The notes under the pieces: model-generated
What the model saw: only the letters and a program-made list of their open reading frames with translations
What the model was told of the DNA's origin: nothing
The model's database searches: none
Shown: positions 11,501 to 22,969 of the stretch, piece after piece
Numbering within the stretch: the stretch's first letter is position 1
Layout: each line of letters starts with the position of its first letter
Source: Mycobacteriales bacterium
GTDB lineage: Bacteria; Actinomycetota; Actinomycetes; JAFAQI01
Reading direction: 5' to 3'
Length of the DNA stretch: 64,000 nt
Assembly (NCBI GenBank): GCA_036267755.1
Contig: DATAVK010000077.1
Span: forward strand, 7,855-71,854
Translations under genes and position numbers: made by a program

Positions 11501-11650
11501 CTCACGCCCTTCCTGCCGGTCGCCAGCTTCACCATCCCCGGCGCTGCGCTGCCGGCCGCTGGCACGTACTCGGTGCAGGTCCGGTACTCCGGGGACGAGT
11601 TCTACTCGCCGAGCACGACCAGCTTCAGTCTGCGGATCAGTCGCGCCTAG
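8537..11650 (+). CDS. large secreted multi-domain protein with C-terminal Ig-like (Big-type) repeats
   Basis: 1037 aa. N-terminal signal peptide (RRLGAIVACGVIGGSALVAAGGVASAAT). Thr/Ser/Gly-rich beta-rich regions. Several roughly 90-aa Ig-like repeats at the C-terminus (AVTVTSSANPTAPGKAVTLTATVSG..., VIFTVTDSSGHVTGTGSA...). Confidence 0.7.
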   Translation: MRSSVQRLGSRRLGAIVACGVIGGSALVAAGGVASAATGLAPGDLVVYRVGDGTTALSGTAAPVFLDEYTPAGTLVTSVPMPTVASGAGQPLVASGSASSEGLLSLSGDGRYLVAPGYDAAVGTTKIASSSSTAVPRTVARVDASGTVDTSTALTDFATGNNPRSATSSDGTSIWVGGAAGGPRYTTLGATTSTELDSGTFKNVRQVADFDGQLYASADPTKAGLTIGTVGSGLPTTTGQTVSNLPFAPPPGDPYGYSLLTLGNGTAPDTLYEADLTAGAVVKYGLVSGSWVAEGSVQVSSPEGLTANDDNGTVSIYATSSGANGTSGTVYAISDSSGVGGTLTGTATPIATLPANEAARGIAFAPGTVIGTGGGIKPPPVVPTISTPRSALPAALGDPTNPTLPVTVGDPDVDASQLTVTVTSSDASIAPDDGITISGSGADRTLTVTPAAVGIATITLTVTAPDESSASEQIRYGVSADLTGDLGPQGSGLRYYSGAGNASAAVDVGGGYAVVADDENDVLRLYDLSESGPPVQTFDFTGQLPFGTSEVDVEAAARVGNVIYWEGSMSTGSSGDLEPARSTVFATSVSGTGANTTLTYLGSYTGLLGDLIAWDQSNGNALGLAASAAAGVGGHEADALNVEGLEFAAGSSSTAYLAFRAPLEPTTNRHLAMLIPVTNFADLATNGNPGTTHATFGSPIFFDLGGLGIRDIRENADGQYLIVAGTADDSNSGFVLYTWDGNPAHAPRQTQTVLPQLPSADNLGAWETIVSTPDPLVSGAPVQLLQDDGDVDWYGDGLTSKTGTVTDLQKDLGVVFDYAAPTPQATAVTVTSSANPTAPGKAVTLTATVSGLADEATPTGSVTFSITGADGSHVSCSGSNTVTLGGGVATCSLPAGALRASGSAYTVTASYAGTADDAGSVGTLTETVTGAPTVTAAAAVTLLPKAGRSVAVLAAVIPTKSVPALLTGSVIFTVTDSSGHVTGTGSAALTPFLPVASFTIPGAALPAAGTYSVQVRYSGDEFYSPSTTSFSLRISRA

Positions 11651-12366
11651 CGACTGTCACCGACACCGAGGCTGAAGGCGGTGTCCGACACCGGTACGGC
11701 GTCCTTGGCGGGGAACGTCCGGAACGCGTGGTCGGCGACGTGCACGGTGACCCCGAACCAGTACTTCTCGTTGCGGAAATGGTGCAGCCGATGCGCCCGG
11801 TAGACGTAGCGGTAGTAGCGGCTGCGGGGCCGGTACGTCGAGTGGATGAGGAAGTGCGTCCACTCATACGTCAGGTACATCGCTGACGAGACGAGCATCG
11901 CCATGAACGCCAGCCTGACCGTCGGCGCGACGAGCAGGTAGAACGGCACCTGGGCAAGGCACGTCGCGATCAGGACCGGGCGCGGGACCAGGACCAGACC
12001 GAGGACCTTGGGGTCCCGGTGGTGTTGGCGATGCCGCCTGGCGCCCAGCGGGTCCACCGTGAGTCGCCCTATCGTGCGCGGCTTCCAGTGCAGCACGGTG
12101 ACGTGGATGACCCACTCGGTGAAGGGTTGTAGGCCGAGGATCGCCGCGAGCACCACGGCGTCCCAACGTGACCAGCCGCCGAGCGCGATCCGTACGCCGG
12201 CGAAGACCAGCACGAGCGGCGCGAGCACGCGGGCGCTGAACGTCCTGCTGAAGATCGCCGCCGCCCGGCGCAGACCCAGGCCGGGCCCGGTGTAGTCCTC
12301 AGGCTGGGCCTCGCGACCACTCGGCCGCATCTCGGTGACCGCCACCTGGTCAGTGTGACGCCGCAC
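11647..12366 (-). CDS. fatty acid hydroxylase / sterol desaturase superfamily membrane protein
   Basis: His-box motifs HRQHHRD and HRLHHF in a hydrophobic protein. Its stop overlaps the stop of the convergent large gene at a shared CTAG. Confidence 0.75.
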   Translation of the reverse strand: MRRHTDQVAVTEMRPSGREAQPEDYTGPGLGLRRAAAIFSRTFSARVLAPLVLVFAGVRIALGGWSRWDAVVLAAILGLQPFTEWVIHVTVLHWKPRTIGRLTVDPLGARRHRQHHRDPKVLGLVLVPRPVLIATCLAQVPFYLLVAPTVRLAFMAMLVSSAMYLTYEWTHFLIHSTYRPRSRYYRYVYRAHRLHHFRNEKYWFGVTVHVADHAFRTFPAKDAVPVSDTAFSLGVGDSR

Positions 12367-12461
12367 CGGTTCTCGCGCCAGACCGGTCTAGAGCGCCCGG
12401 ATGCCCGCAAAGGCCGCGTCCCGGGGCCGCCCCGGGTTACCGTGCCTAGGTGGATCCGCTC

Positions 12462-12980
12462 ATGGCACCGACCCTGGCGGCCGCTCTCCTGCTCGTCCTG
12501 GCCGGTGCACCGAAGCTGGTGAATCCGCACGACACCCGCCGTGCGCTGCGCTCGGTCGGGTTCCCGGTTCCAGCGATCGCGGTGCGGGCGGGCGGCCTGG
12601 TCGAGGTGGGCATCGGCACGCTGGCGGTGCTGCACGGCGGTCGGGTCGCCGACGGGCTGGTTGCTGCGTCGTACCTCGGGTTCACCGGCTTCGTCATCGT
12701 GGCGCTGCGCAGCGGGGGAGTCATCGCGTCGTGCGGCTGCGTCGGCCGCCCCGACACCCCGCCGACTCTCGCTCACGTGCTGGTCACGGCCGCGTTCACG
12801 GTTTTGACAGGTGTCGCAGCGGCGGTCGGCTCCACCGGCGTGCTGACATGGACCACGTCGTCCATGTCGACGGTCCACCAGGTGGCCGTCCTCGGGTTCG
12901 CCGTCCTGATCGCCTGGCTCGCGTGGCTCGCCCTGGCGGAGCTGCCGCGGCTGCGGGCCATCGAACGCTTCGTTGCCTAA
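12462..12980 (+). CDS. MauE-like (methylamine utilisation protein MauE / DoxX-like) membrane protein
   Basis: Polytopic membrane protein with a C-x-C in a transmembrane helix (IASCGCVGRP), characteristic of the MauE family. ATG at 12462 is preceded by AGGTGG. GTG at 12450 is an alternative start. Confidence 0.65.
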   Translation: MAPTLAAALLLVLAGAPKLVNPHDTRRALRSVGFPVPAIAVRAGGLVEVGIGTLAVLHGGRVADGLVAASYLGFTGFVIVALRSGGVIASCGCVGRPDTPPTLAHVLVTAAFTVLTGVAAAVGSTGVLTWTTSSMSTVHQVAVLGFAVLIAWLAWLALAELPRLRAIERFVA

Positions 12981-12993
12981 TAAGGGGTTCCAC

Positions 12994-13704
12994 GTGTTGG
13001 CACTGGTCATAGCGGAGGGGGTCGCGGTCGCCCTTCTTGGCCTGCTGGTCGCCGGGTTGCTGCGCAGCCACGCCGAGATCCTTCGCGCGCTGCACGACCT
13101 CGGCGCGGACCTCGATCCTGACGGCCGCGCACCCGTCATCCCGGCCACTCGAGTCGCGTCGCTGCGGGCCGAGGACATCGCGCACGACATCGCGGGGCAG
13201 CGGTTGGACGGCAGTGCCGCGGCGGTCGGCGTGGTCGGCGCGCCCCACGACTCGGTGCTGGCCTTCCTTTCCAGTGGCTGCGCGACGTGCCACCCGTTCT
13301 GGGACTCGTTGCGCGCCGGTGTCTCGCCGGTCGGTGATTCTCGCGTGGTCGTCGTCGTCCAGGACGAGGACAACCGCAGCCGGCTGCAGCAGCTCGCCGG
13401 AGCTGACCTCGACGTGGTCGCCTCGTCACGTGCGTGGGCTGACTACGGCGTCCCGGGTTCCCCGCACATCGTCCAGGTGCACGGCCCGACCGGCCGGGTC
13501 GTCGGTGAGGGCACCGGCCAGACCTGGGAGCAGGTGATGGACTTGCTCAGTCACGGTGATGACGCCCGCCGCGGGTCGAGACAGGAACCCGGGACCGACG
13601 ACCGGGACAACGCCACCCGGATCGACGCCGAGCTCGCTGCGGCGGGGATCGGGCCGGGCCATCCGAGCCTGCACGACGAGCGGCCGCCGCTGGAGACCGG
13701 GTGA
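12994..13704 (+). CDS. membrane-anchored thioredoxin-like thiol:disulfide oxidoreductase (TlpA/ResA/MauD-like)
   Basis: N-terminal TM anchor, then a CxxC thioredoxin motif (SSGCATCHPFW) and a redoxin-like fold. Acidic, disordered C-terminal tail. GTG start with AAGGGG RBS. The ORF track begins at TTG 12973. Confidence 0.7.
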   Translation: MLALVIAEGVAVALLGLLVAGLLRSHAEILRALHDLGADLDPDGRAPVIPATRVASLRAEDIAHDIAGQRLDGSAAAVGVVGAPHDSVLAFLSSGCATCHPFWDSLRAGVSPVGDSRVVVVVQDEDNRSRLQQLAGADLDVVASSRAWADYGVPGSPHIVQVHGPTGRVVGEGTGQTWEQVMDLLSHGDDARRGSRQEPGTDDRDNATRIDAELAAAGIGPGHPSLHDERPPLETG

Positions 13705-13790
13705 GCGGAGCTGCCATCACGCTGGTGCTGGGCGTCGCGGCGGCTGTGGTGGCCGGGCTCCGCGCGACCTGGTCACCTTGAGGTGAGTCG

Positions 13791-14384
13791 ATGCTGGCGA
13801 GCATCAGCCCGCTAGTTGAGCGGGCACCCGGAACCCGATGGTGGCGCCTGGCCGGTTCATACCTGGTCGGGTCGGTCGTCGGTGGCTCGGCCGTGGGCGC
13901 TGCCCTCGGCGCGGTGGGCGAGGCGGTGCGGCTCCGGCACTCGTGGGTCGCCCTCGCCGCGGTCACTGCGGCACTGGCCGTCCTTGCGGCACTTGCCGAC
14001 CTGGCCGGTCGGGTGCCGAGTCGGCGGCGACAGGTGGACGAGACCTGGTTGTCGACGTACCGCGACTGGGTGATCGGGACCGGGTTCGGCGTCCAGCTCG
14101 GCGTGGGGGCGGTCACGATCGTCACCTCCGCGTCGACGTACCTGACGTGGTGGTTCGAGGCGGCCTCGGGCTCCGCTGTCGCGGGAGCGGTGATCGGCGG
14201 CTGCTTCGGTCTGGCGCGCGGCCTGCCATTGCTCAGCATGGCCGGCGTCCGCGACGCGGGCGAGCTGCGTCGGCGCAATGCCGCGATCGTCACCGCTCTG
14301 CCCGTCGCTCGCCGGCTCGCCGTCGGTGCGCAGCTGTCGATCGCCGGCCTGGTCGGCGTCGCCGCCGTTGTGGCGGCTCGCTGA
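13791..14384 (+). CDS. integral membrane protein of unknown function (about 5-6 TM)
   Basis: ATG preceded by GAGGTGA. Hydrophobic throughout. Stop overlaps the next start by 1 nt. Confidence 0.55.
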   Translation: MLASISPLVERAPGTRWWRLAGSYLVGSVVGGSAVGAALGAVGEAVRLRHSWVALAAVTAALAVLAALADLAGRVPSRRRQVDETWLSTYRDWVIGTGFGVQLGVGAVTIVTSASTYLTWWFEAASGSAVAGAVIGGCFGLARGLPLLSMAGVRDAGELRRRNAAIVTALPVARRLAVGAQLSIAGLVGVAAVVAAR

Positions 14385-14830
14385 TGGCGCAGGTGCATGC
14401 CTACGGCCTCTCGCTCGAGGCCCCGACGGGGTGGGACGTTCACGTCTACCGGCGGCAGACCGACGACGGGAGTACGCCGTACCCGATCGTGCACGCCTCG
14501 AACTTCCCGTTGCCGCGACGCCGCGGCGACTTCGGGGTGGGCGCCGTCGAACGGATGTCGCGGGACCACGTGCTCGTGGTGCTCTTCGAGTACGAGCCCG
14601 CCGCGGCGCACACCCCGCTGTTTCGGGTGACCCGCCGGCCGCAGCCGCGGGCTCACGACTTCCACCCCCAGCAGCTGCAGCGCACCGTCCCCGGTCAGAG
14701 CGGGGCCCAGTGGTTCTTCACCGAGGGCAACCGCCCGTTCTGCCTTTACGTCGTCATGGGCGGTCACACCCGCCGCGCCCAGCTGCTGCCCCACGTCCAC
14801 CGGCTGCTCGACAGCCTGATCGTGCACTAG
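14384..14830 (+). CDS. hypothetical cytoplasmic protein (148 aa) in the MauE-like operon
   Basis: ATG at 14384 overlaps the upstream stop (TGATG). No signal peptide. High GC3 codon usage. Internal part of ORF 13838..14830. Confidence 0.5.
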   Translation: MAQVHAYGLSLEAPTGWDVHVYRRQTDDGSTPYPIVHASNFPLPRRRGDFGVGAVERMSRDHVLVVLFEYEPAAAHTPLFRVTRRPQPRAHDFHPQQLQRTVPGQSGAQWFFTEGNRPFCLYVVMGGHTRRAQLLPHVHRLLDSLIVH

Positions 14831-14840
14831 GAGGACGAAC

Positions 14841-16406
14841 GTGGTCACCGAACGCTTGGTCAACAAGGCGTCCGAGCTGCTGTCCCACCGGCTGGGACGG
14901 CGCGGCTTCCTGGTGCGCACCGCCGTCGTCGGCTCGGCCCTCGCGACGTCCGGTCTGGACTACGTGCTCAAGCCGCAGAGCGCCTATGCGTCGGTGTGCG
15001 GGAGCGGCTCGTCCTGCTCATCCGGGTGGACGGCGATGTGCTGCACCATCCACGAGGGCGTCAACCAGTGCCCGCCCGGGAGCTTCGCCGGCGGCTGGTG
15101 GAAGGCCGACGGCGCCAGCCTGTGTGGTGGCAAGGCCCGCTACTACATCGACTGCCAGGGTGAGTGCACCCACTGCGGCTGCGGCGGCGGAGCCTTCTGC
15201 GCCTCGCACTGCCTGAACTGCCGGAGTCACTGCGCCGACGGCTCCTGCGACAAACGGCACGTCTGCCACAACGTCTTCCGGTACGGCCAGTGCGACCGCA
15301 ACCGGCACTGCTCGGGCCCTGTGCTGTGTCGCGCGATCTCGTGCACGCCGCCGTGGAAGTGGGCCGACTGCAGTGATGCCAGCGCCACCGATAACGCGAC
15401 CCGGACCCACTCCGCGTCCTGCCTGTCCGGCTGGACCCACATCGCTAAGCGATACACCGCCCTCGGATCGCAGGGATCGGTCCTCGGCGCCTCCGTCAAC
15501 GGTGAGCACACCTCCGGGCACGCCAAGATCCAGCACTACGTCCATGGCCGGATGTACTGGTCGCAGGACACCGGTGCGCACTATCTCATCGGAAGGGTGG
15601 TCCACCGGTACGACGTGATCGGCCAGAACCATTCGCCGCTCGGCCTGCCGACCTCGGACGCCAAGCGACTCCCCGACCACGGTCTGGCGGCGCACTTCCA
15701 GCACGGCGCGATCTACGAGCGACCGAACGGCAATGCTCACGCGATATGGGGGACGGTCTATACGAAGTGGCATCAACTCGGTGACCAGACCGGCCCACTC
15801 GGATATCCGACGAGCGACGTGGTCGACATCGTGTCCGGCGGGGTGCGGGCGACGTTCGTGCACGGCGGCATCTACAACGGCCCCGACACCGCTGCCCACG
15901 CAGTCTGGGGACCGCTCTACACGACGTACGTCGGGCTAGACCAACAGGCGGGCCTGCTCGGCTTCCCCCGCAGCGACGTGACGGTGAACGCTGATGGGGT
16001 TGGCAGCCACGTCCGCTTCGTCGACGGGATCGTCGAGCGGGACCCGGCCGGCGAGGTGCACTCGCTGTGGGACGCAGTGGGCACCGCGTACATCGCGCTG
16101 GGGGCCGACGCGTCGCCGTTGGGGTATCCCACAACGGACGTCGAGACCGGCAGCGATTCGCCTGACGGGGAGACCTTCGCCAGGTTCGCGACTTTCGTCA
16201 ACGGCACACCAACCCTCAGCGGTTCCATCACGCTGGCCCCGGAAGCCACGACAGCGTTCGGTGTGTGGGGCCCGATCTACACGCAATGGCAAAAAGACGG
16301 CGGCGCCACTGGCGCCCTGGGCTATCCGATTTCGAACGTGACGACCAACTCCGACGGCACCCAGACGTGCACGTTCCAGCACGGGACTCTCACGTACAAC
16401 CCGTGA
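14841..16406 (+). CDS. Tat-exported protein with hyper-cysteine-rich domain and C-terminal LGFP repeats
   Basis: GTG at 14841 preceded by AGGAGGA. Twin-arginine signal (GRRGFLVRTAVVGSALATSG, AYA cleavage region). About 22 Cys between residues 51-195 (CPPG, CTHCGCGGG, SHCLNCRSHC). At least 5 LGFP-type repeats (SPLGLPTSD, GPLGYPTSD, GLLGFPRSD, SPLGYPTTD, GALGYPISN). Confidence 0.7.
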   Translation: MVTERLVNKASELLSHRLGRRGFLVRTAVVGSALATSGLDYVLKPQSAYASVCGSGSSCSSGWTAMCCTIHEGVNQCPPGSFAGGWWKADGASLCGGKARYYIDCQGECTHCGCGGGAFCASHCLNCRSHCADGSCDKRHVCHNVFRYGQCDRNRHCSGPVLCRAISCTPPWKWADCSDASATDNATRTHSASCLSGWTHIAKRYTALGSQGSVLGASVNGEHTSGHAKIQHYVHGRMYWSQDTGAHYLIGRVVHRYDVIGQNHSPLGLPTSDAKRLPDHGLAAHFQHGAIYERPNGNAHAIWGTVYTKWHQLGDQTGPLGYPTSDVVDIVSGGVRATFVHGGIYNGPDTAAHAVWGPLYTTYVGLDQQAGLLGFPRSDVTVNADGVGSHVRFVDGIVERDPAGEVHSLWDAVGTAYIALGADASPLGYPTTDVETGSDSPDGETFARFATFVNGTPTLSGSITLAPEATTAFGVWGPIYTQWQKDGGATGALGYPISNVTTNSDGTQTCTFQHGTLTYNP

Positions 16407-16422: not shown

Positions 16423-17883
16423 TCAGCCGATGGTGGGGCGGTGCATCGCCGGAGCCTCGGGCGCGACGGCGGTCGGCTCGGGGCGCCGGGGACCGAGTCG
16501 CATCAGCGTCGCCGTGGAACCGGCGGGGACGAACTCCCGCATGCCTCGCTCCGCGGTCGACTTGGGCGTGTCCACCACGATCGGGTGCTCCTTGGCGTAC
16601 GCGTCCTGCCGGATTCCGGTGACCTGCCAGGACACCTCGAGGCCGGACGTGCCGCCGGCGATCTGGAACCGGTTGTTCTTGACCGTGCTGGCTACGTAGA
16701 CCGGGGCGTGCGCGCCAATCGTCGTCAGCTGGTAGCGGAAGTCGCGATTCAGCGCGCCGAAGTACTCGGGGAGCTCGACGGTGGCCTTGCCGTCGCCGTC
16801 CAGCACGACGTTGCCGTTGTAGACGTTCATCATGTCCGGCGACTCGACGAACGAATGCGACAGCCAGCGCTGCTCGGGATCCAGTGGATGGTCGATCTTG
16901 AACGACCCGGCGGTCTTCGAGAGCGTGCCGGCCACGTGGGCATTTCCCTGCGACCAGAGCCCGAACGATGCGGAGTTCGACGCCTGGCCGAACACGCCGT
17001 ACGTCTGGTTCGTGCCGGTGTCCGTGGCGAGACCGTACAGGGCGTACGTCGTGCCCTGGCCCCAGACGCCAACGTAACCGGAGTCGCCGCGGACCCCGGC
17101 GGTGCGACCGTTCGCACCCTGGACGCCATACTGCCCGCCGGTCCCACTCACCGCGGCGCCGTTGACGTTCGACGTCGTGCCGGCGACTCCGGTCGTCGAG
17201 CCCGAGCCGTAGACCCCCGTCGACCCGGCTCCGTACACCCCGTACGTACTTCCTGACCCGTAGCTGCCATACGTGCTGCCGGAGGCGTAAAGGCCATAGC
17301 CGCCCCCCGAGGCGTACATGCCGACGCTTCCGCTGCTGGTGGCGCTGAAGATCGCGCCGTAGGACCCGCCGGTGCCACGAACACCCGTGTATCCACCCGT
17401 CCCGGAAACGCCATAGGTGCTCGTCGAGGTGCCGCTGACACCGGTCCCGGTGCTCGAGGTGCCGCTGATCCCGGTCCCCGCTCCTGCAATGCCGCTGATA
17501 GCGCTCGAAGTGCTAGCCGTGCTGGTCGTCGTACCCCGGAGCGTGATGTCGCGCGTGCTCTTCACATCGAGCTGGGACGCCGGACTCTTCGTCCCGATGC
17601 CCACGAGGCCGGCGGCCGTTATCCGCATCCGCTCGGCCACAGACGTGTGCTTCGACGTCCGAGTCTTGAAGATCAGGGCTGCCGGATTGGTGGGCCCGAG
17701 GAAGTTCTTGCTCGTGACCTTCCGGTTGCCACCGAGCTTCCATGTGGTGGAGGCCGAGGCCGCGGACGCGTCGTCCGGCGACGCCACTTCCGTCAGCCCA
17801 ACCGCGGCTGCTGCGGCGGTCCCGGCAAGCAGGAACCGGCGCGGGAATCGTCGTTCGATGGCATCACTGTCGACAGCAGGCAT
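16423..17883 (-). CDS. Tat-exported Gly/Ser/Tyr/Thr short-repeat (fibre-like) protein with conserved C-terminal globular domain
   Basis: Tat motif (RRFPRRFLLAGTAAAAAVG). Long run of degenerate 6-9 aa repeats (GSTYG, SGTGGY, YGVSGT). Non-repetitive C-terminal roughly 190 aa. ATG at 17883 preceded by GGGGGGA. Alternative ATG at 17904. Confidence 0.65.
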   Translation of the reverse strand: MPAVDSDAIERRFPRRFLLAGTAAAAAVGLTEVASPDDASAASASTTWKLGGNRKVTSKNFLGPTNPAALIFKTRTSKHTSVAERMRITAAGLVGIGTKSPASQLDVKSTRDITLRGTTTSTASTSSAISGIAGAGTGISGTSSTGTGVSGTSTSTYGVSGTGGYTGVRGTGGSYGAIFSATSSGSVGMYASGGGYGLYASGSTYGSYGSGSTYGVYGAGSTGVYGSGSTTGVAGTTSNVNGAAVSGTGGQYGVQGANGRTAGVRGDSGYVGVWGQGTTYALYGLATDTGTNQTYGVFGQASNSASFGLWSQGNAHVAGTLSKTAGSFKIDHPLDPEQRWLSHSFVESPDMMNVYNGNVVLDGDGKATVELPEYFGALNRDFRYQLTTIGAHAPVYVASTVKNNRFQIAGGTSGLEVSWQVTGIRQDAYAKEHPIVVDTPKSTAERGMREFVPAGSTATLMRLGPRRPEPTAVAPEAPAMHRPTIG

Positions 17884-18043
17884 GGTGTCCCCCCAAGGCC
17901 ACATGCTCAGCGAATGGCGTCGCCGAGCGCCAATGGTGCGGCAGCATATGCCAGACGTGCCGACTCTGCGGACTGGCGCTAAGGTTCGCCCCGAACCCGG
18001 TTCTAGGGGCTGGGACCGCAGTCACGACCGCGGAGGTTCCTTC

Positions 18044-18835
18044 GTGCCAGCGCTGCTCGATGTCGACCGCATCAGCGTCCGGTTCGGTGGGCTGACCGCG
18101 CTCACCGAGGTCTCGGCGTCGGTTGCTGACGGTGAGGTGGTCGGGGTCATCGGACCCAACGGCGCCGGGAAGACGACGCTGTTCAACGTGGTCTGCGGCT
18201 TCGTCCGCCCGAGCGAAGGATCGCTGCGCTGGCGCGGCGCGACCCTGTCGCGGCACCGCCCGCACCAGCTCGCCGGACTTGGCATTGCGCGCACCCTGCA
18301 GAGCCTCGGGCTGTTCACCAACCTCTCCGTCCTCGACAACGTCGTCGTGGGCGCCGACCATCACGCTCGCTCCTGGTTCGGCTCAGGACTGTTCGCACTT
18401 CCGCGTGGCGATCGTGACGAGCGGGAGCTGCGCGAGCGCGCGTTGCGCACCCTCGAGGAGCTCGGCATCGCCGACACAGCGGCACGGATGCCCGACCAGC
18501 TGCCCTACGGCGTCCAGAAGCGGGTCGCGCTCGCCCGCGCGATCGTGGCGGACCCGGCCCTGCTGCTGCTCGACGAGCCGGCCTCCGGGCTCTCGAGTGC
18601 GGAGATGGACGACCTCGCGACGTTGATCCGCGAGCTGTCGGGGCGAATGGGTGTGCTGCTCGTCGAGCACCACATGGACCTCGTCATGTCGGTCTGCGAC
18701 CGGATCTGTGTCCTTGACTTCGGTCGGTGCATCGCGACCGGCACGCCGGAGGAGATCCGCGAGGACCCGAACGTCCTCGAGGCCTACCTCGGCGAAGCCG
18801 TCGACGCCTCTACCGAGGAGGTCCGTGATGCTTGA
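18044..18835 (+). CDS. livG: HAAT-family ABC transporter ATP-binding protein (LivG-like)
   Basis: GTG at 18044 with GGAGG 6 nt upstream. Walker A GPNGAGKTT. Confidence 0.8.
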   Translation: MPALLDVDRISVRFGGLTALTEVSASVADGEVVGVIGPNGAGKTTLFNVVCGFVRPSEGSLRWRGATLSRHRPHQLAGLGIARTLQSLGLFTNLSVLDNVVVGADHHARSWFGSGLFALPRGDRDERELRERALRTLEELGIADTAARMPDQLPYGVQKRVALARAIVADPALLLLDEPASGLSSAEMDDLATLIRELSGRMGVLLVEHHMDLVMSVCDRICVLDFGRCIATGTPEEIREDPNVLEAYLGEAVDASTEEVRDA

Positions 18836-19535
18836 GCTCACCGACGTCGTGACGACGTACGGCGCCGTGCACGCACTCGACGGCGTCTCGATCTCCGTGC
18901 CGGACGGGACGATCCTCGCGGTCCTCGGCGCCAACGGTGCGGGCAAGACGACGTTGTTGCGCAGCATCAACGGCCTGGTGCGAGCCCGCTCCGGCAGTAT
19001 TCGGTACGACGGCCGCGATCTGCTGCGCACCAAGGTGGAGGATGTCGTGAGCCTCGGGATCGCTCACGTCCCCGAGGGTCGGGGCGTCATCACGGAGCTG
19101 ACCGTCGAGGAGAACCTGCGGCTGGGCGCGCTGTGGCGCGGTGACCGCGACGAGTGTGCGACGAACCTGGCGGCGACCTATCAGATGTTCCCGCCGCTCG
19201 CGGAGCGCCGGAACAAGGCGGCGGACACGCTCTCCGGCGGCGAACGCCAGATGCTCGTCGTGGGGCGAGCCTTGATGAGCCGCCCGAAGCTGCTGCTGCT
19301 CGACGAGCCGTCCTTGGGGCTGGCGCCTCGCATCACCGCGCAGATCATGGCCACCCTCCGCCGGTTGCGCGACGAGCAGCAGCTGACCGTCGTCCTCGTC
19401 GAGCAGAACGCACGCAGCGCCCTGTCGGTGGCCGACAGCGCCGTCGTGCTCAACCTCGGCAAGGTGGTTGCGCAGGGCAGCGCCGCCGAGCTGGCCGCCG
19501 ATGACAAACTTCGACACGCCTATCTGGGGTTCTGA
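18828..19535 (+). CDS. livF: HAAT-family ABC transporter ATP-binding protein (LivF-like)
   Basis: ATG at 18828 overlaps the upstream gene end. Walker A GANGAGKTT, LSGGERQM. Confidence 0.85.
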   Translation: MLELTDVVTTYGAVHALDGVSISVPDGTILAVLGANGAGKTTLLRSINGLVRARSGSIRYDGRDLLRTKVEDVVSLGIAHVPEGRGVITELTVEENLRLGALWRGDRDECATNLAATYQMFPPLAERRNKAADTLSGGERQMLVVGRALMSRPKLLLLDEPSLGLAPRITAQIMATLRRLRDEQQLTVVLVEQNARSALSVADSAVVLNLGKVVAQGSAAELAADDKLRHAYLGF

Positions 19536-19537
19536 CC

Positions 19538-20422
19538 ATGACGCCCATCAACCTCATCCTCAACGGCATCGCGTTCGGCAGCATCTACGCGGCTGTGGCG
19601 CTGGCCCTGGTGCTGATCTGGCGCTCCACCCGCATCGTGAACTTCGCGCAGGGCGGGATGCTCATGGTGACGACGTTCATCGCCTACACGCTGGTGCAGG
19701 AGCACGGCCAGAACTACTGGGTCGGTCTCGTGGTGGCGTTGCTTGCCGGCTTGGTCATCGGTGCCGTCGTCGAGCGGGTGCTGGTCCGGCCGGTCGAGGG
19801 GGCGTCGCCGCTCAACGCCGTCATCCTGACCCTTGGCCTGCTGCTCCTCTTGCAGGGTGGCGCCGGGATGATCTGGGGGAACGGGGTTGCGTCGTACCCG
19901 CCCGCGTTCTCGACGATCTTCTACCGCGTCGGTCACCAGGAGCTGCTCTTCTCGCCGAACTACCTGTTCGTCGTGGTCTCCGTGGCTGTCGTCGTGGTGC
20001 TGCTGTATCTACTGTTCCAACGCACGTCGATCGGGCTACGGATGCGGGCGTCTGCGTTCAGCCCGGAGGTCGCCCGACTGCTCGGCGTACGGGTCGGACG
20101 CATGCTCACGCTCGGCTGGGCCCTGGCTGCGGCGGTAGGTGCGCTAGCTGGTGTGCTGATCGCCGGCACCGCCCCGAACTACATGAACCCGAACGGCTTC
20201 GACGCCCTGCTGATCTATGGCTTCACCGCGGCCGTGATCGGAGGTCTCGACTCTCCGATCGGCGCGGTCGTCGGGGGCCTGCTGATGGGAATCGCGTTTG
20301 CCTTTCTCAACAACTACGTCAGCGTCCAGATCGACACGTTCTATGCGCTGGTTCTGCTGACGGTCGTCCTGATGGTCCGCCCGTCCGGGTTGTTCAGCCG
20401 GACCGCCACGAGAAGGGTGTGA
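19538..20422 (+). CDS. livH: HAAT-family ABC transporter permease (LivH-like)
   Basis: Hydrophobic LivH-like sequence (IVNFAQGGMLMVTTFIAY...). Confidence 0.85.
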   Translation: MTPINLILNGIAFGSIYAAVALALVLIWRSTRIVNFAQGGMLMVTTFIAYTLVQEHGQNYWVGLVVALLAGLVIGAVVERVLVRPVEGASPLNAVILTLGLLLLLQGGAGMIWGNGVASYPPAFSTIFYRVGHQELLFSPNYLFVVVSVAVVVVLLYLLFQRTSIGLRMRASAFSPEVARLLGVRVGRMLTLGWALAAAVGALAGVLIAGTAPNYMNPNGFDALLIYGFTAAVIGGLDSPIGAVVGGLLMGIAFAFLNNYVSVQIDTFYALVLLTVVLMVRPSGLFSRTATRRV

Positions 20423-21462
20423 CCGTGCCGGGCGTCCTGGGTCGCTCCACGCTGCTGCGCCACGTGCTGTTCGCCGTCATCGGCGGCGCGGCACTGTTCC
20501 TGCTGACGCACGAGCTGGGGGAGTTCCGCAACTCCCAGCTGGCCAATATCGCCTACATCGCTTGCGCCACGGCGGGGCTCACCGTGCTCACCGGCCTGTC
20601 CGGCCAGGTGTCCATAGGCCACGGAGCATTCATGTTCATCGGTGCCTATACCGCGGCGCTGTTCCTCAAGCACGACCTGGCCGAGCGACTGTTGCAGCAC
20701 TCTGGCAATGCCAACTTCGGTCTGATCATCGTCCTGCTCGCAGCAGTTCTGGTCTGCGCTCTGGTGGGCGGCGTCGTCGGTGTCGCGGCAGCCAGGCTGC
20801 GCGGCCCCTACCTCGCGGGGATCACGCTTGCGCTGGCGATCGGCATCCCCGTCCTGCCGTTGTGGTCGAAGCTAGAAGGGCCGCTCGGCGGGCACGCCGG
20901 CCTCCCGGTCAATGCACCGGCACCGCCGACCAGCGTGGACTACGTGCGCTTCCAGGCCTGGATCTGTTGTCTGTCGGCGGTCATCGTGATTTTCCTGTTG
21001 GCGAACCTGAGCCGGAGCCGGGTCGGGCGGGCATTCCGCGCCGTCCGTGATGACGAGATCTCCGCTTCACTCGCCGGATTGTCTGTGGCCCGCGTGCAAG
21101 TGCTCGCTTTTGTGGTCAGCGCAGCGTGTGCAGGCTTGTCGGGCGGCCTGTTCGCCATCGTGGCTGGCAGCGTCGGACCGGCGTCGTTCCCGTTGTCGTT
21201 GTCGTTCTATTTGTTGGCTGCCATCGTCTTCGGCGGTCTCGGTTCGTTGGCCGGAGCGGTGTACGGCGCCGTGCTGATCACGTTGCTGCCGAACTGGTCG
21301 ACCGACATCGCGAACTCGCTGTCGTTGTCGATGCGGGTGCAGAACAACCTGCCATTGGTGATCCTCGGTGCTGCGCTTATCGTTGCCATGCTGGTGTTCC
21401 CAAGCGGGGTGCAGGGACTGCTTCGCCGCGGCTGGGGAACGGTCGCGCGGCGCGCTACGTAA
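20419..21462 (+). CDS. livM: HAAT-family ABC transporter permease (LivM-like)
   Basis: GTG at 20419 overlaps the livH stop. LivM-like (GQVSIGHGAFMFIGAYTAALF...). Confidence 0.8.
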   Translation: MTVPGVLGRSTLLRHVLFAVIGGAALFLLTHELGEFRNSQLANIAYIACATAGLTVLTGLSGQVSIGHGAFMFIGAYTAALFLKHDLAERLLQHSGNANFGLIIVLLAAVLVCALVGGVVGVAAARLRGPYLAGITLALAIGIPVLPLWSKLEGPLGGHAGLPVNAPAPPTSVDYVRFQAWICCLSAVIVIFLLANLSRSRVGRAFRAVRDDEISASLAGLSVARVQVLAFVVSAACAGLSGGLFAIVAGSVGPASFPLSLSFYLLAAIVFGGLGSLAGAVYGAVLITLLPNWSTDIANSLSLSMRVQNNLPLVILGAALIVAMLVFPSGVQGLLRRGWGTVARRAT

Positions 21463-21556
21463 CGCGACGGACACGATACTCACCGGTAACTCGTCACAGA
21501 ACGAGATTCGGTCTATGTTGCTCGCAGATCGCCCCGGTCTGACCCTCGGAGGAGCA

Positions 21557-22891
21557 ATGACCAGAACATCCATTCGCCTTTTCGCTGGCGGCGCGTTGCT
21601 CGCCGTCGCGGTCGCCGCATGTGGTGGAAGTAGCAGCGGTGGCAGTCCTTCGAGCGGCTCGTCCCCGAGCAGCGGCGGCGCCAACACTGCATCCGCGCCC
21701 GGCATTACCGCGACGACGGTCACGATCGGCAGCCATCAGCCACTGACCGGTGTCGCGGCGCCGGGGTACGACGAGATCGCGCCGGCGTCGAACGCCTACT
21801 TCCAGTGGGTCAACGCCCACGGCGGCATCAACGGTCGGAAGATCGTCTACAAGTATCTCGACGACGCCTACAACCCCGCACAGACGGTCACCGTCGTCCA
21901 CAAGCTGGTCCTACAGGACAAGGTGTTCGCGATCTTCAATGGTCTCGGCACCCCCACCCATCAGCAGGTCGTGGCGTACCTCAACTCGCAGAAGATCCCC
22001 GACCTGTTCGTGGCTTCCGGCTGCCTGTGCTGGAATATGCCGTCCACCCAGCCCGAGACGTTCGGTTGGCAGCCCGACTACACGATCGAGGGCAAGATCC
22101 TCGGCCAATACATCACCCAAAAGTTCAAGGGGCAGAAGGTCGCCGTCTTCGCGCAGGGCGACGACTTCGGCCACAACGGCGTCAAGGGACTGCAGGACGA
22201 GGTCCCATCGAGCCAGATCGCGACGATCCAGTACTACGACCCGACCAACACCAACGTCGCGCCGCAGGTGCAGAAGCTTGCCCAGTCCGGAGCGAAGATC
22301 GTCGTGTCGTTCACGGTGCCGGCGTTCACCGCGCTGCTCCAGCTCACCGCGTTGCAGCTGAAGTACCAGCCTCAGCTCGTGGTCAGCAACGTCGGGTCCG
22401 ATCCGAAGACGCTGGCGGGCTTGCTGACGTCGTTCTCGAAGGGCAAGGCGCCAGGTTCGAAGCTGATCCAGGGGATCATCACCGACGGCTACCTGTCCTC
22501 GCCGGCGGACACGAGCAACTCGTGGATCCAGCTGTTCCAGCAGGTCCATCAGCAGTACATCCCGAAGCTGCCGTTCGACGGCAACGTGGAGTACGGCATG
22601 GCGGCGGCGTACACCTTCGTCCAGGCCTTGAAGGCGGCTGGTCAGAACCCGACCCGGGCAAGCATCGTGTCGGCGATCCAGTCGAGTCACTTCACCGGTC
22701 CGGGCCTGGTGCCGTTCGGCTTCTCCAGCTCCTCGCATGCCGGCTACACCGGCGTCCAGATCGGAGTCATCAAGGGCAGCGCGATCCACTTGCTCGGGCA
22801 GCCGATGACGACCGATGACGGTAGCGGCGCGATCACGCCGTTCACCACCCAGCAGCCGGCTGCGCCGGCGAACGGGATCCCCTCCAACTGA
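21557..22891 (+). CDS. HAAT-family ABC transporter substrate-binding lipoprotein
   Basis: ATG at 21557 preceded by GGAGG. Lipobox (LLAVAVAACGGSSSG) then a Ser/Gly linker. LivJ-like fold motifs. Located at the 3' end of the operon, unlike the first operon. Confidence 0.8.
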   Translation: MTRTSIRLFAGGALLAVAVAACGGSSSGGSPSSGSSPSSGGANTASAPGITATTVTIGSHQPLTGVAAPGYDEIAPASNAYFQWVNAHGGINGRKIVYKYLDDAYNPAQTVTVVHKLVLQDKVFAIFNGLGTPTHQQVVAYLNSQKIPDLFVASGCLCWNMPSTQPETFGWQPDYTIEGKILGQYITQKFKGQKVAVFAQGDDFGHNGVKGLQDEVPSSQIATIQYYDPTNTNVAPQVQKLAQSGAKIVVSFTVPAFTALLQLTALQLKYQPQLVVSNVGSDPKTLAGLLTSFSKGKAPGSKLIQGIITDGYLSSPADTSNSWIQLFQQVHQQYIPKLPFDGNVEYGMAAAYTFVQALKAAGQNPTRASIVSAIQSSHFTGPGLVPFGFSSSSHAGYTGVQIGVIKGSAIHLLGQPMTTDDGSGAITPFTTQQPAAPANGIPSN

Positions 22892-22969
22892 TCGAGTGAC
22901 GGGGGTTGTTGGGCACGGCGGCGCGCGTTACGGTTCGTCTACCGCCGCCAGGCGAAGAGGAGCCGCGCC

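Follow-up and report, generated by a model that had tools for sequence, protein, structure and literature searches.

The open reading frame at positions 14841 to 16406 (plus strand) of the window, i.e., the whole 64-kb stretch of DNA analyzed here, encodes a 521-aa protein that is probably exported through the Tat pathway, folded outside the cell into a disulfide knot as the client of a cassette of the MauE/MauD/MauF type, related to the methylamine dehydrogenase (MADH) light chain MauA, and held on the cell wall. The gene belongs to a five-gene actinobacterial cassette, which also encodes homologs of MauE, MauD, and MauF and an orphan protein, P150 (Table 1).

Table 1. Features of the Cys-rich protein gene and its cassette (window positions)
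Feature	Positions	Strand	Basis or remark
mauE-like gene, 176 aa	12450..12980	+	Pfam PF07291, E 2.8e-13
mauD-like gene, 243 aa	12973..13704	+	Orthologue profile matches MauD, E 2.4e-8
mauF-like gene, 197 aa	13791..14384	+	Orthologue profiles match Paracoccus MauF
Orphan gene P150, 148 aa	14384..14830	+	Found in every cassette locus
Long twin-arginine leader, residues 1 to 50	14841..14990	+	Conserved RR, TAT_signal score, hhalign against MauA leader
Cys-rich domain, residues 51 to 200, 22 Cys	14991..15440	+	Alignments, AF2 model, Cys pair covariation
LGFP repeat region and stop codon	15441..16406	+	Pfam PF08310, E 3.1e-46; presumed cell-wall-binding stalk

Domain architecture of the Cys-rich protein

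The reading frame begins with a GTG codon, 7 nt downstream of a strong AGGAGG ribosome-binding site. Its leader consists of a pre-RR helix (residues 3 to 18), the RRGFLV segment (residues 20 to 25), a hydrophobic region, and, at residues 48 to 52, an AYA-SV cleavage-type site (AYA at 48 to 50). The resulting motif, GRRGFLVRTAVVGSALA...AYA, fits the S/T-R-R-x-F-L-K type with its downstream hydrophobic stretch and AxA site. In the family alignment, Arg20, Arg21, and Leu24 are invariant and Phe23 is found in at least 90% of the homologs; the NCBIfam TAT_signal model (TIGR01409) gives the leader 15.9 bits, just below its cut-off of 16.7. By these motif criteria, the protein is predicted to be a Tat substrate.

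The segment singled out in the preliminary description (positions 14991 to 15426) corresponds to residues 51 to 195, and translation of the gene places the motifs quoted there, including MCC (residues 66 to 68), QCPPGSFAGGWW (residues 76 to 87), and CQGEC...VCHN (residues 105 to 144), where they had been reported. This segment packs 22 Cys residues into ∼145 positions, with one further Cys located in the C-terminal repeats. A beta-hairpin bears the motifs GGWWKAD (residues 84 to 90) and RYYIDC (residues 100 to 105) and is followed by a variable Cys-rich insert (residues 109 to 131) and by the motifs FRYGQC (residues 146 to 151), CRAISCTPP (residues 163 to 171), and DNATRTH..SCL (residues 184 to 195). 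The AF2 model of the mature domain, built from 118 sequences, has a pLDDT of 90.6 and a pTM of 0.86 (an input of 30 sequences gave a pLDDT of 45).

The C-terminal region scores 156 bits with PF08310 (cut-off, 22) and comprises five repeats, whose LG[LYF]P motifs lie at residues 267, 320, 373, 427, and 493. LGFP repeats are present in 46 of the 105 family representatives; CW_binding_2, SLH, and lectin modules occur in others. An LGFP array is shared with the mycoloyltransferases MytA/cMytA of Corynebacteriales, and the LGFP domain of cMytA has been proposed to mediate non-covalent association with the envelope (bioRxiv 10.1101/2024.05.19.594877). In MytA/cMytA, however, the N-terminal module is an esterase, whereas here it is the Cys-rich domain, preceded by a Tat-type leader.

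A large family of Cys-rich proteins

Homologs of the Cys-rich domain number 571 at 90% clustering, and the family as a whole comprises 635 clusters at 50% identity from at least 556 species genomes. The best 150 matches of the representative search were all clear family members, and all 80 loci that were fetched came from Actinomycetota or unclassified metagenome-assembled genomes. This large family is nameless: the domain had no match in Pfam (at E ≤ 0.1) or NCBIfam, and sequence searches of PDB with phmmer and with the family profile returned nothing at E ≤ 10. Present annotations of its members read "hypothetical protein" or "protein with LGFP repeats."

Across the 118 aligned sequences, 11 Cys residues are invariant and 2 more are found in 117; these 13 include Cys53, Cys67, Cys77, Cys95, Cys105, Cys136, Cys151, Cys163, Cys168, and Cys177. 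The Cys-rich domain behind the Tat-type leader is thus a genuine conserved entity, and the preliminary concern that its Cys pattern might dissolve into low-complexity drift among homologs is dispelled by these near-invariant positions. The GGWWKAD, RYYIDC, and FRYGQC motifs are invariant or nearly so across the family, and at least 15 polar or aromatic residues other than Cys are invariant. This suggests the presence of a specific site, so that "scaffold" may be too modest a description of the domain.

The accessory genes of the cassette

All four accessory genes were found in 49 of the 53 loci whose flanks extend at least 3.5 kb on both sides; the same-strand gene order seen in the window was read from the locus listing, without a tally. 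The comparison with MauA made in the preliminary description was a good lead, and the four upstream genes, with their homologs of MauE, MauD, and MauF, give it a stronger context than was apparent there.

The mauE-like product, named "MauE/DoxX family redox-associated membrane protein" by NCBI, is predicted to act as a MauE-family thiol oxidase in the membrane. The profile of its 74 orthologs matches Paracoccus MauE at an E value of 2.7e-9. The active site of MauE has been described as a CXC motif plus conserved Lys and Glu residues, and MauE complements DsbB through its CXC site (bioRxiv 10.64898/2026.03.05.709764). The mauE-like product carries a CGC motif (residues 95 to 97, positions 12732 to 12740), Lys22 in GAPKL (first transmembrane segment), and Glu52 in LVEVG (second transmembrane segment). 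Together with the CATC motif of its thioredoxin-fold partner, these residues predict an oxidative folding activity of the MauE type.

The mauD-like open reading frame overlaps the stop codon of its mauE-like neighbor by 8 nt. Its product has an N-terminal membrane anchor (residues 8 to 30) and a thioredoxin-like domain with a VPGSP loop and the sequence FLSSGCATC, whose CxxC motif (CATC) occupies residues 103 to 106 (positions 13279 to 13290); the conserved consensus is TLlAFLSSGC.TC..FW. No Pfam or NCBIfam family was assigned to this protein. Across the Paracoccus mau locus, the profile of its 75 orthologs matched the MauD open reading frame only (hhalign probability, 93%).

The mauF-like product, labeled "sulfite exporter TauE/SafE" in IMG, is a polytopic membrane protein without conserved Cys residues. 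Orthologue profiles match Paracoccus MauF, and no other open reading frame of that mau locus, at E values of 3e-19 and 4.6e-23 (hhalign probability, 98.4%), and there is a weak Pfam match to DsbD_2 (E = 0.002). The match spans MauF residues 85 to 272, so the first MauF helix, with its WSPCG motif, is missing.

The start codon of the P150 gene overlaps the mauF-like stop codon. P150 lacks a signal peptide and displays the conserved motifs RGDFGSG, LQR..PGQSG.Q.FF, and GRAFCLYVVLGS. Searches of Pfam, NCBIfam, and PDB yielded no match, with the P150 profile reaching only chance-level scores against PDB. It shows no similarity to MauJ and was rejected as a homolog of that protein.

Two other MauE-linked systems bear comparison. 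The recently described MauE-centered pathway (bioRxiv 10.64898/2026.03.05.709764) likewise combines a CXC-containing MauE with a CxxC partner in species lacking MauA, but there MauE serves as a generalist substitute for DsbB, whereas here a dedicated MauE/D/F operon accompanies one Tat client. Streptomyces clusters flagged by decRiPPter as candidate RiPPs (PMC7794033) also place mauE, with or without mauD, beside a Cys-rich product, in genomes that lack a mau cluster. Those products, however, are peptides ∼60 aa long that contain 8 or more Cys residues and no RR motif; having no FRYGQC, GGWWK, or CPPGT motif, they were rejected as members of the same family.

Probable relationship to the MADH light chain

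We regard the Cys-rich domain as most likely a distant relative of the MADH light chain that lacks TTQ, although the link is weak and homology of the mature domain is something we infer. MauA (PF02975; PDB entries 2BBK and 3SWS, chains L and C) is likewise a small, secreted, very Cys-rich, disulfide-stapled protein. It shares with the family a twin-arginine leader of unusual length, in which the pre-RR helix is conserved, and its maturation genes mauE, mauD, and mauF also adjoin the client gene, with mauE and mauD located upstream. The mauE-D-A order is common to the cassette and to the mauFBEDACJGMN cluster (PMC4543880). The differences are also substantial. MauA has 12 Cys residues, compared with 16 to 28 in the family, which has an additional variable Cys-rich insert and is usually fused to cell-wall-binding repeats. 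The cassette lacks the MauB, MauG, amicyanin, MauJ, MauM, and MauN of the mau cluster and has an extra gene, that for P150. Finally, the family is found in Actinomycetota, whereas the MauA comparison set came from Proteobacteria-type methylotrophs (Paracoccus, Methylobacterium, and Hyphomicrobium).

In profile comparisons, the full-length hhalign match to MauA had a probability of 95.8% (E = 7.6e-9), and the leader-to-leader match one of 96% (E = 4.6e-9 over 27 columns). The similarity to MauA thus resides mainly in the leader, and the generic SRRxFL Tat motif accounts for much of the leader score; the pre-RR part of the leader alone matched MauA with a P value of 3e-4. For the mature domain, hhalign probabilities were 5 to 12% (P values of 0.0025 to 0.009), not significant with any of the inputs used (30, 118, and 265 sequences and short-form members only), and the match at P = 0.0025 was confined to DG..CC..G.N.CPPGT. 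In the control, the reversed profile scored 11.5 and the forward one 24.3. The domain had no PF02975 match in Pfam at E ≤ 0.1, the PDB sequence searches returned no solved MauA or AADH light chain at E ≤ 10, and hmmsearch with the family profile gave Paracoccus MauA an E value of 0.15.

Foldseek comparison of the AF2 model with 350,542 PDB chains gave no significant fold match, and a fold search of BFVD gave nothing. Four PDB matches were obtained at E ≤ 10, with the MADH light chain 3sws_C at the top (E = 9.4, TM score of 0.30 to 0.36, rmsd of 8.9); it was the only one to span most of the model (145 columns). For the mature domain, the resemblance to MauA proposed in the preliminary description fails to reach significance in either profile or structure comparisons. 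The accompanying remark that the motif order differs needs correction, as both families show the same N-terminal succession of motifs: C-x5-C-x6-C-x-C-x7-CPPGT...W...C...Y-x-I-x-x-x-DC in MauA and C-x5-C-x7-CC-x8-CPPG[ST]...WW...C...RYYIDC in the Cys-rich family.

These results could also be read as describing an independent disulfide-rich fold (e.g., an inhibitor, adhesin, or toxin-like module) that is unrelated to MauA and borrows folding of the MauE/D/F type, the leader and CPPGT resemblances being convergent or generic. The non-significant profile scores of the mature domain and the poor Foldseek statistics agree with such an origin, as do the proposed role of MauE as a generalist oxidase in many MauA-less species (bioRxiv 10.64898/2026.03.05.709764) and the existence of other MauE-linked Cys-rich peptides in Streptomyces (PMC7794033). 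It nevertheless appears unlikely, given that MauE, MauD, and MauF, and not MauE alone, are all tightly linked to the client, that the conserved pre-RR helix is common to both leaders, that five N-terminal Cys residues, CPPGT, Trp, Cys, and DC follow each other in the same order and spacing in both families, and that no other PDB hit at E ≤ 10 spans most of the model.

The cofactor question

Both Trp86 and Trp87 are invariant, and a low-stringency alignment places them at MauA Trp57, the quinone-bearing residue, which together with Trp108 forms TTQ in P. denitrificans. In the same, statistically non-significant, register, Asp104-Cys105 fall at MauA Asp76-Cys77. The column matching MauA Trp108, however, is variable in the family and is occupied by His in the target. 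Searches by tblastn with Paracoccus MauB, MauG, MauC, and MauJ found none of them either in the 64-kb window or among 85 related loci. The variability of the second Trp position and the absence of MauG and MauB from the flanks leave a TTQ cofactor of the MauA kind, hinted at in the preliminary description, without support. The gamma subunit of QHNDH, which carries CTQ plus thioether cross-links, was rejected as a class on gene context, the cassette having no QhpD, QhpG, peptidase, or heme subunit; the Pfam lists for the neighbors of four loci contained no radical-SAM, flavoprotein, peptidase, or heme gene. A gene for a PD40 beta-propeller is found with all 8 stand-alone copies of the domain; these propellers have no similarity to MauB and were rejected as its homologs.

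A related possibility is that the protein is a quinoprotein-type subunit, with a quinone on Trp86 or Trp87, perhaps cross-linked to Cys or Tyr as in CTQ/TTQ, displayed on the wall as a redox catalyst; Tat export and P150 would then reflect modification in the cytoplasm. In a variant of this reading, the domain would be a descendant of MauA that retains the position of the quinone-bearing Trp and the catalytic Asp-Cys, but in which TTQ has given way to another, MauG-independent modification, such as a quinone on one Trp or a cross-link between Trp and Cys or Tyr. P150 and MauE/D/F would aid its formation, the product would be displayed on actinobacterial cell walls, and the split form would dock to the PD40 propeller, much as MADH light chains do to their propeller heavy chain. 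The MauA-type leader and N-terminal motif are in line with these proposals, as are the positions of Trp86/Trp87 and of the near-invariant Asp104-Cys105 in the low-stringency hhalign register, the many invariant polar residues around those sites, the conservation of the uncharacterized P150 in every cassette, and the PD40 propeller, which loosely recalls the propeller heavy chain of MADH. Still, the residue equivalences come from a non-significant alignment, the second TTQ Trp position varies, the PD40 proteins are unlike MauB, amicyanin joins MauG, MauB, and MauJ among the proteins missing from the window and the 85 loci, and neither a radical-SAM enzyme nor a flavoprotein nor a heme protein is encoded in the cassette. 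Both the quinoprotein subunit and its variant are accordingly quite improbable.

Probable disulfides rather than metal ligands

Homologs contain between 16 and 28 Cys residues, and 114 of the 118 sequences have an even number. Presence and absence are correlated for the pairs 112-124, 129-143, 127-142, 59-131, 96-198, and 68-194 (phi of 0.92 to 0.96), and both partners of 129/143 and of 96/198 are missing from the target. Two of the covarying pairs, 59-131 and 68-194, have no simple counterpart, under the weak alignment, among the known disulfides of MauA. The Cys-adjacent His residues (His111, His123, His130, His140, His143, and His156) are retained in only 2 to 31% of the homologs, His190 being the only conserved His (92%). 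The insert at residues 109 to 131 is shortened or missing in approximately one-third of family members, 98 of the 265 domains having at most 140 residues.

Even counts, paired loss, and unconserved His residues fit a disulfide knot and not a metal cluster; the Cys residues behave as disulfide partners, which would form 11 bonds in the target. Thus, of the paired Cys and His pattern originally described, the Cys part represents a family trait with 13 near-invariant positions, whereas the adjacent His residues are peculiar to the target sequence; among the natures proposed for the domain, the knotted module gains from the even, paired Cys residues, and the metal cluster is disfavored by the unconserved His residues and the varying Cys number. 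The metallothionein/metal-cluster class was rejected, as a fixed conserved set of Cys/His ligands is absent. A metallothionein-like or Fe-S/Zn cluster module, loaded with metal in the cytoplasm, would account for the use of Tat and for the very dense Cys residues with CxxC and CxC spacings and neighboring His in the target, but it is highly improbable in view of the paired gain and loss of Cys, the often shortened or missing CxxC-rich insert, the unconserved His residues, the co-encoded thiol-oxidizing system of the MauE/MauD type, and the lack of any metalloprotein family match in Pfam, NCBIfam, or PDB.

Predicted maturation pathway and implications

The preferred reading, a MauA-related disulfide knot formed outside the cell, implies the following sequence of events. 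The pre-protein with its long MauA-type leader would leave the cytoplasm through Tat while still reduced, possibly after being held there by P150. At the outer face of the membrane, the anchored CxxC-containing MauD homolog would oxidize the 22 Cys residues to 11 disulfides and would in turn be re-oxidized by the quinone-linked MauE homolog through its CGC motif, with the Cys-less MauF homolog as a putative membrane partner. The folded knot, predicted to contain a central three-stranded sheet with the invariant WW and Asp-Cys motifs, would then be retained at the cell wall through its LGFP repeats, where it would probably serve as a displayed module for binding or catalysis and not as a metal-cluster protein.

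That the MADH light chain requires MauF, MauE, and MauD has been known from genetics since the 1990s, and a DsbB-like oxidase action of MauE was first demonstrated in a 2026 preprint (bioRxiv 10.64898/2026.03.05.709764). Here, the MauE/D/F trio accompanies a different, very Cys-rich client in more than 550 actinobacterial species, without adjoining MADH genes. Its occurrence as a compact operon with another client argues that the trio constitutes a self-contained oxidative-folding module for a Tat-exported disulfide knot. Because several hosts have been cultured (Kineococcus, Janibacter, Phycicoccus, Knoellia, Pedococcus, and Jatrophihabitans), these cassettes offer simpler test systems. Should the WW/Asp-Cys site prove to be modified, the family would represent a new branch of tryptophylquinone enzymes.

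Cys-Rich Domain Family

The 521-aa target protein (HEX3907756.1, annotated as a "hypothetical protein" of a Mycobacteriales MAG) is encoded by an open reading frame with a GTG start codon and an upstream AGGAGG, and consists of a twin-arginine leader (residues 19 to 50, GRRGFLVRTAVVGSALA...AYA), a domain with 22 Cys residues (residues 51 to 200), and a C-terminal part of 320 residues with five LGFP repeats (Pfam PF08310, E value 3.1e-46). In the translation, the Cys motifs quoted in the preliminary description are found at exactly the positions given there. Neither Pfam nor NCBIfam contains a model that matches the Cys-rich domain, and with either the single sequence or the family profile as a query, no sequence of a solved structure matched it.

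This domain is real and defines a large family. A word-indexed search with target residues 1 to 205 matched 571 clusters at 90% identity, none of them named and many consisting of stand-alone proteins of ∼205 aa, and HMMER, run in full over 1.84 billion representatives, yielded 635 clusters at 50% identity (E value of ≤1e-3), including 305 at ≤1e-30. When a single genome was scanned for each species, at least 556 loci matched the family. The 80 loci examined all come from Actinomycetota or unclassified MAGs; their hosts include Frankiaceae and Mycobacteriales MAGs, Kineococcus, Janibacter, Knoellia, Pedococcus, Phycicoccus, Oryzobacter, and Jatrophihabitans, as well as Acidimicrobiales, Microthrixaceae, and Euzebyaceae. 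Conservation of Cys residues among homologs, the check proposed at the outset, is borne out by an alignment of 118 sequences, in which 11 Cys residues are invariant and 2 more are found in 117. Also conserved in at least 90% of these sequences are G62, G73, N75, CPPG, GWWKAD, RY.IDC, D137, R139, N144, FRYGQC, R164, PP, D184, T187, and H190.

The AlphaFold2 model of residues 44 to 200, built from the 118 sequences, is confident (pLDDT, 90.6; pTM, 0.86) and largely irregular, with three strands of at least 3 residues: GGWWKAD and RYYIDC, which pair in a long beta-hairpin, and VLCRAIS. The WW hairpin is surrounded by at least 15 invariant polar or aromatic residues, which point to a putative specific binding or catalytic site.

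Among 105 family representatives scanned, 46 carry LGFP repeats; other partner modules are CW_binding_2 (7 cases), FG-GAP (4), DUF4214 (3), and SLH, ricin-B, and B-lectin (one each). Homologs from the search with residues 1 to 205 also include B_lectin and PLL-type lectin propeller proteins. For envelope enzymes of corynebacteria, noncovalent tethering by LGFP domains has been proposed (bioRxiv 10.1101/2024.05.19.594877), and what the partner modules seem to have in common is that they would display the protein on the wall of the cell that makes it.

Conserved mau-Like Gene Cassette

The four genes upstream of the target gene are all on its strand, with successive junctions of -8, +87, -1, and +10 nt, three of which are overlaps or fall within 10 nt. 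Profiles of the actinobacterial cassette orthologs were searched against the Paracoccus mau cluster, whose order is mauR-F-B-E-D-A-C-J-G-M-N (see also PMC4543880). The MauE-like profile matched MauE (2.7e-9), that of the CxxC protein matched MauD (2.4e-8; hhalign, 93%), and the MauF-like profile matched MauF (4.6e-23; hhalign, 98.4%); no match to the remaining mau-locus ORFs was better than an E value of 0.08. The MauF-like proteins of the window and of most orthologs begin downstream of the WSPCG helix and contain no conserved Cys.

Features of the window and of related loci (L001, L003, L004, L005)
Feature	Coordinates	Strand	Description
Secreted protein, 1037 aa	8537-11650	+	Two Big_3_5 Ig-like domains, weak DUF3616 match (Pfam)
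Fatty-acid-hydroxylase family membrane protein	11647-12366	-	PF04116, 4.7e-16; divergent from mauE-like gene
MauE family protein	12450-12980	+	Pfam 2.8e-13; CGC motif, Lys/Glu of active-site signature
Membrane-anchored thioredoxin-like protein	12973-13704	+	FLSSGCATC; ortholog profile matches Paracoccus MauD
Polytopic membrane protein	13791-14384	+	Ortholog profile matches Paracoccus MauF
P150, orphan protein, 148 aa	14384-14830	+	No signal peptide, no known relatives
Target, 521 aa	14841-16406	+	Leader, Cys-rich domain, LGFP repeats
Protein of 493 aa, convergent with target	16423-17904	-	Tat-like RRFLLAGTAAAAAVGL leader, long Gly/Ser/Thr-rich repeats, conserved ∼150-aa C-terminal domain; no Pfam family above threshold
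ABC-transporter genes	∼17900-22900	+	Two ATPases, two permeases, periplasmic binding protein (ORF translations, by eye only); resemble a Liv-type system for uptake of branched-chain amino acids
L001 secreted PD40/Tricorn-type propeller	12617-14206
L003 secreted PD40/Tricorn-type propeller	12703-13986
L005 secreted PD40/Tricorn-type propeller	12541-14439
L004 (Jatrophihabitans endophyticus) MauF-like	10960-11760		Extra N-terminal helix with WSPCG, cf. WSPCGYSS of Paracoccus MauF

Flanks of at least 3.5 kb on each side are available for 53 related loci, and 49 of these encode all four accessory proteins; in the other 4, the MauF-like gene is the only one not detected, except that one of them also lacks MauE. 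The window order, mauE-mauD-mauF-P150-client (the client being the Cys-rich protein), with a long client ORF, is found in 45 loci. The remaining 8 have the order mauE-client(short)-mauD-mauF-P150, followed by a gene for a PD40/Tricorn-type beta-propeller, which is present in all 8 of these loci (L024, L026, L027, L034, and L064 in addition to L001, L003, and L005) versus none of the 45. Because the propeller occurs only beside a stand-alone client, the two could form a complex that replaces the fused wall anchor, as the gene layout suggests. These PD40 proteins bear SLH or PLL-lectin-type C-terminal modules and show no similarity to the heavy chain of methylamine dehydrogenase (MADH). By tblastn, neither the window nor any of 85 related loci gave a match to MauB (that heavy chain), MauG, amicyanin, or MauJ.

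Rare predicted fusions with an internal Tat leader, MauE-client (P0323, P0378, and P0379) and P150-client (P0249 and P0307), may reflect gene calls that ran through closely spaced neighbors and not genuine fusions. The gene for the 1037-aa protein lies outside the conserved cassette of other loci, and the fatty-acid-hydroxylase gene is not conserved beside the cassette in L001, L003, L004, or L005.

Probable Relationship to the MADH Light Chain

Full-length profile-profile comparison of the family with MauA, the TTQ-bearing MADH light chain, gave a 95.8% probability (E value, 7.6e-9; 81 columns). The leader alone matched the MauA leader at 96%; after exclusion of the generic SRRxFL motif, the remaining pre-RR helix matched at a P value of 3e-4. 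The motif order had been described as different from that of MauA; in the first ∼55 mature residues, however, order and spacing are alike, C-x5-C-x6-C-x-C-x7-CPPGT-x6-W-x3-C...YLIAYRDC in MauA and C-x5-C-x7-CC-x8-CPPG[ST]-x4-WW-x7-C...RYYIDC in the client family. A Foldseek search of 350,542 PDB chains returned four matches at E values of ≤10, of which only the MADH light chain 3sws_C covers most of the model (145 columns; E value, 9.4; TM, 0.30/0.36). Homologs of the three known light-chain maturation genes (mauE, mauD, and mauF) are constant neighbors of the client gene. Chistoserdov et al. reportedly found in 1994 that the small subunit was missing in mauF, mauE, and mauD mutants.

Without the leader, hhalign against MauA aligned only 12 to 22 columns around DG..CC..G.N.CPPGT (P value, 0.0025 to 0.009; probability, 5 to 12%), whatever the alignment depth or subfamily, and HMM-to-sequence searches with the family profile gave no significant match to PDB sequences or Paracoccus MauA. 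In the hhalign register, the covarying Cys pairs 59-131 and 68-194 (see below) do not map simply onto the reported disulfides of MauA. A fold with no kinship to MauA, simply using a borrowed MauE/D/F system, would agree with all the nonsignificant mature-domain tests, but we consider it unlikely given the leader, the N-terminal motif order, and the neighboring genes. The MauA resemblance noted in the preliminary description is strengthened by these three features and not by profile comparison of the mature domains, so a distant relative of MauA that has lost TTQ is considered likely rather than demonstrated, and the domain is not assigned to PF02975. The alignment column of the second TTQ tryptophan varies within the family; an enzyme with a tryptophan-derived cofactor, made without MauG, is quite improbable, as the cassette has no oxidizing or maturation enzyme and the second Trp is missing.

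Cysteine Pairing

The domain contains 16 to 28 Cys residues, an even number in 114 of the 118 homologs, and the noninvariant Cys columns are gained or lost jointly in specific pairs (target numbering): 112-124 and 129-143 (phi, 0.96 each), 127-142 (0.95), 59-131 (0.94), 96-198 (0.93), and 68-194 (0.92). The target lacks both members of pairs 129/143 (Ser and His there) and 96/198. The CxxC-rich residues 109 to 131 are shorter or missing in approximately one-third of the family, and the Cys-adjacent His residues of the target are kept in just 2 to 31% of homologs. The even counts, paired gain and loss, variable CxxC stretch, and nonconserved His are signatures of structural disulfides, probably 11 in the target, and argue against a fixed metal site. 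A metal-cluster domain, one of the options initially proposed, is very hard to reconcile with variable, mostly even, paired Cys numbers and poorly kept His neighbors.

Proposed Maturation Pathway

MauE substitutes for DsbB via a CXC motif, with quinone use predicted, and is commonly fused to thioredoxin-fold proteins (bioRxiv 10.64898/2026.03.05.709764); PMC7794033 cites van der Palen 1997 for MauE and MauD being essential to methylamine metabolism in P. denitrificans. From the observed gene cassette with its mau homologs, the Cys residues that behave as pairs, the Tat-type leader, and the fusions to wall-binding modules, one can envisage that Tat would export the reduced client preprotein, the anchored MauD-like protein would introduce its disulfides, and the MauE-like oxidase would recycle the MauD-like protein. 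The Cys-less MauF-like protein might assist as a scaffold and the cytoplasmic P150 as a holdase or proofreading factor; the LGFP repeats would then fix the folded client to the wall.

Streptomyces MauE-linked "RiPP candidates" were rejected as members of this family, being Cys-rich ∼60-aa peptides of a different one. Their N termini (MSRALESLSSRLLG... and MVKSLSALAGRAFARV...; PMC7794033, table S2) bear a loose resemblance to the pre-RR helix in the leaders of MauA and the client, which hints at a possible common recognition element. Apart from the general preprint on MauE and the peptide clusters of Streptomyces, the literature searched contained no description of the client family or of a mauE/D/F cassette serving a client other than MADH. 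We class this system as a MADH light-chain maturation system reused for a TTQ-less, wall-anchored disulfide-knot domain.
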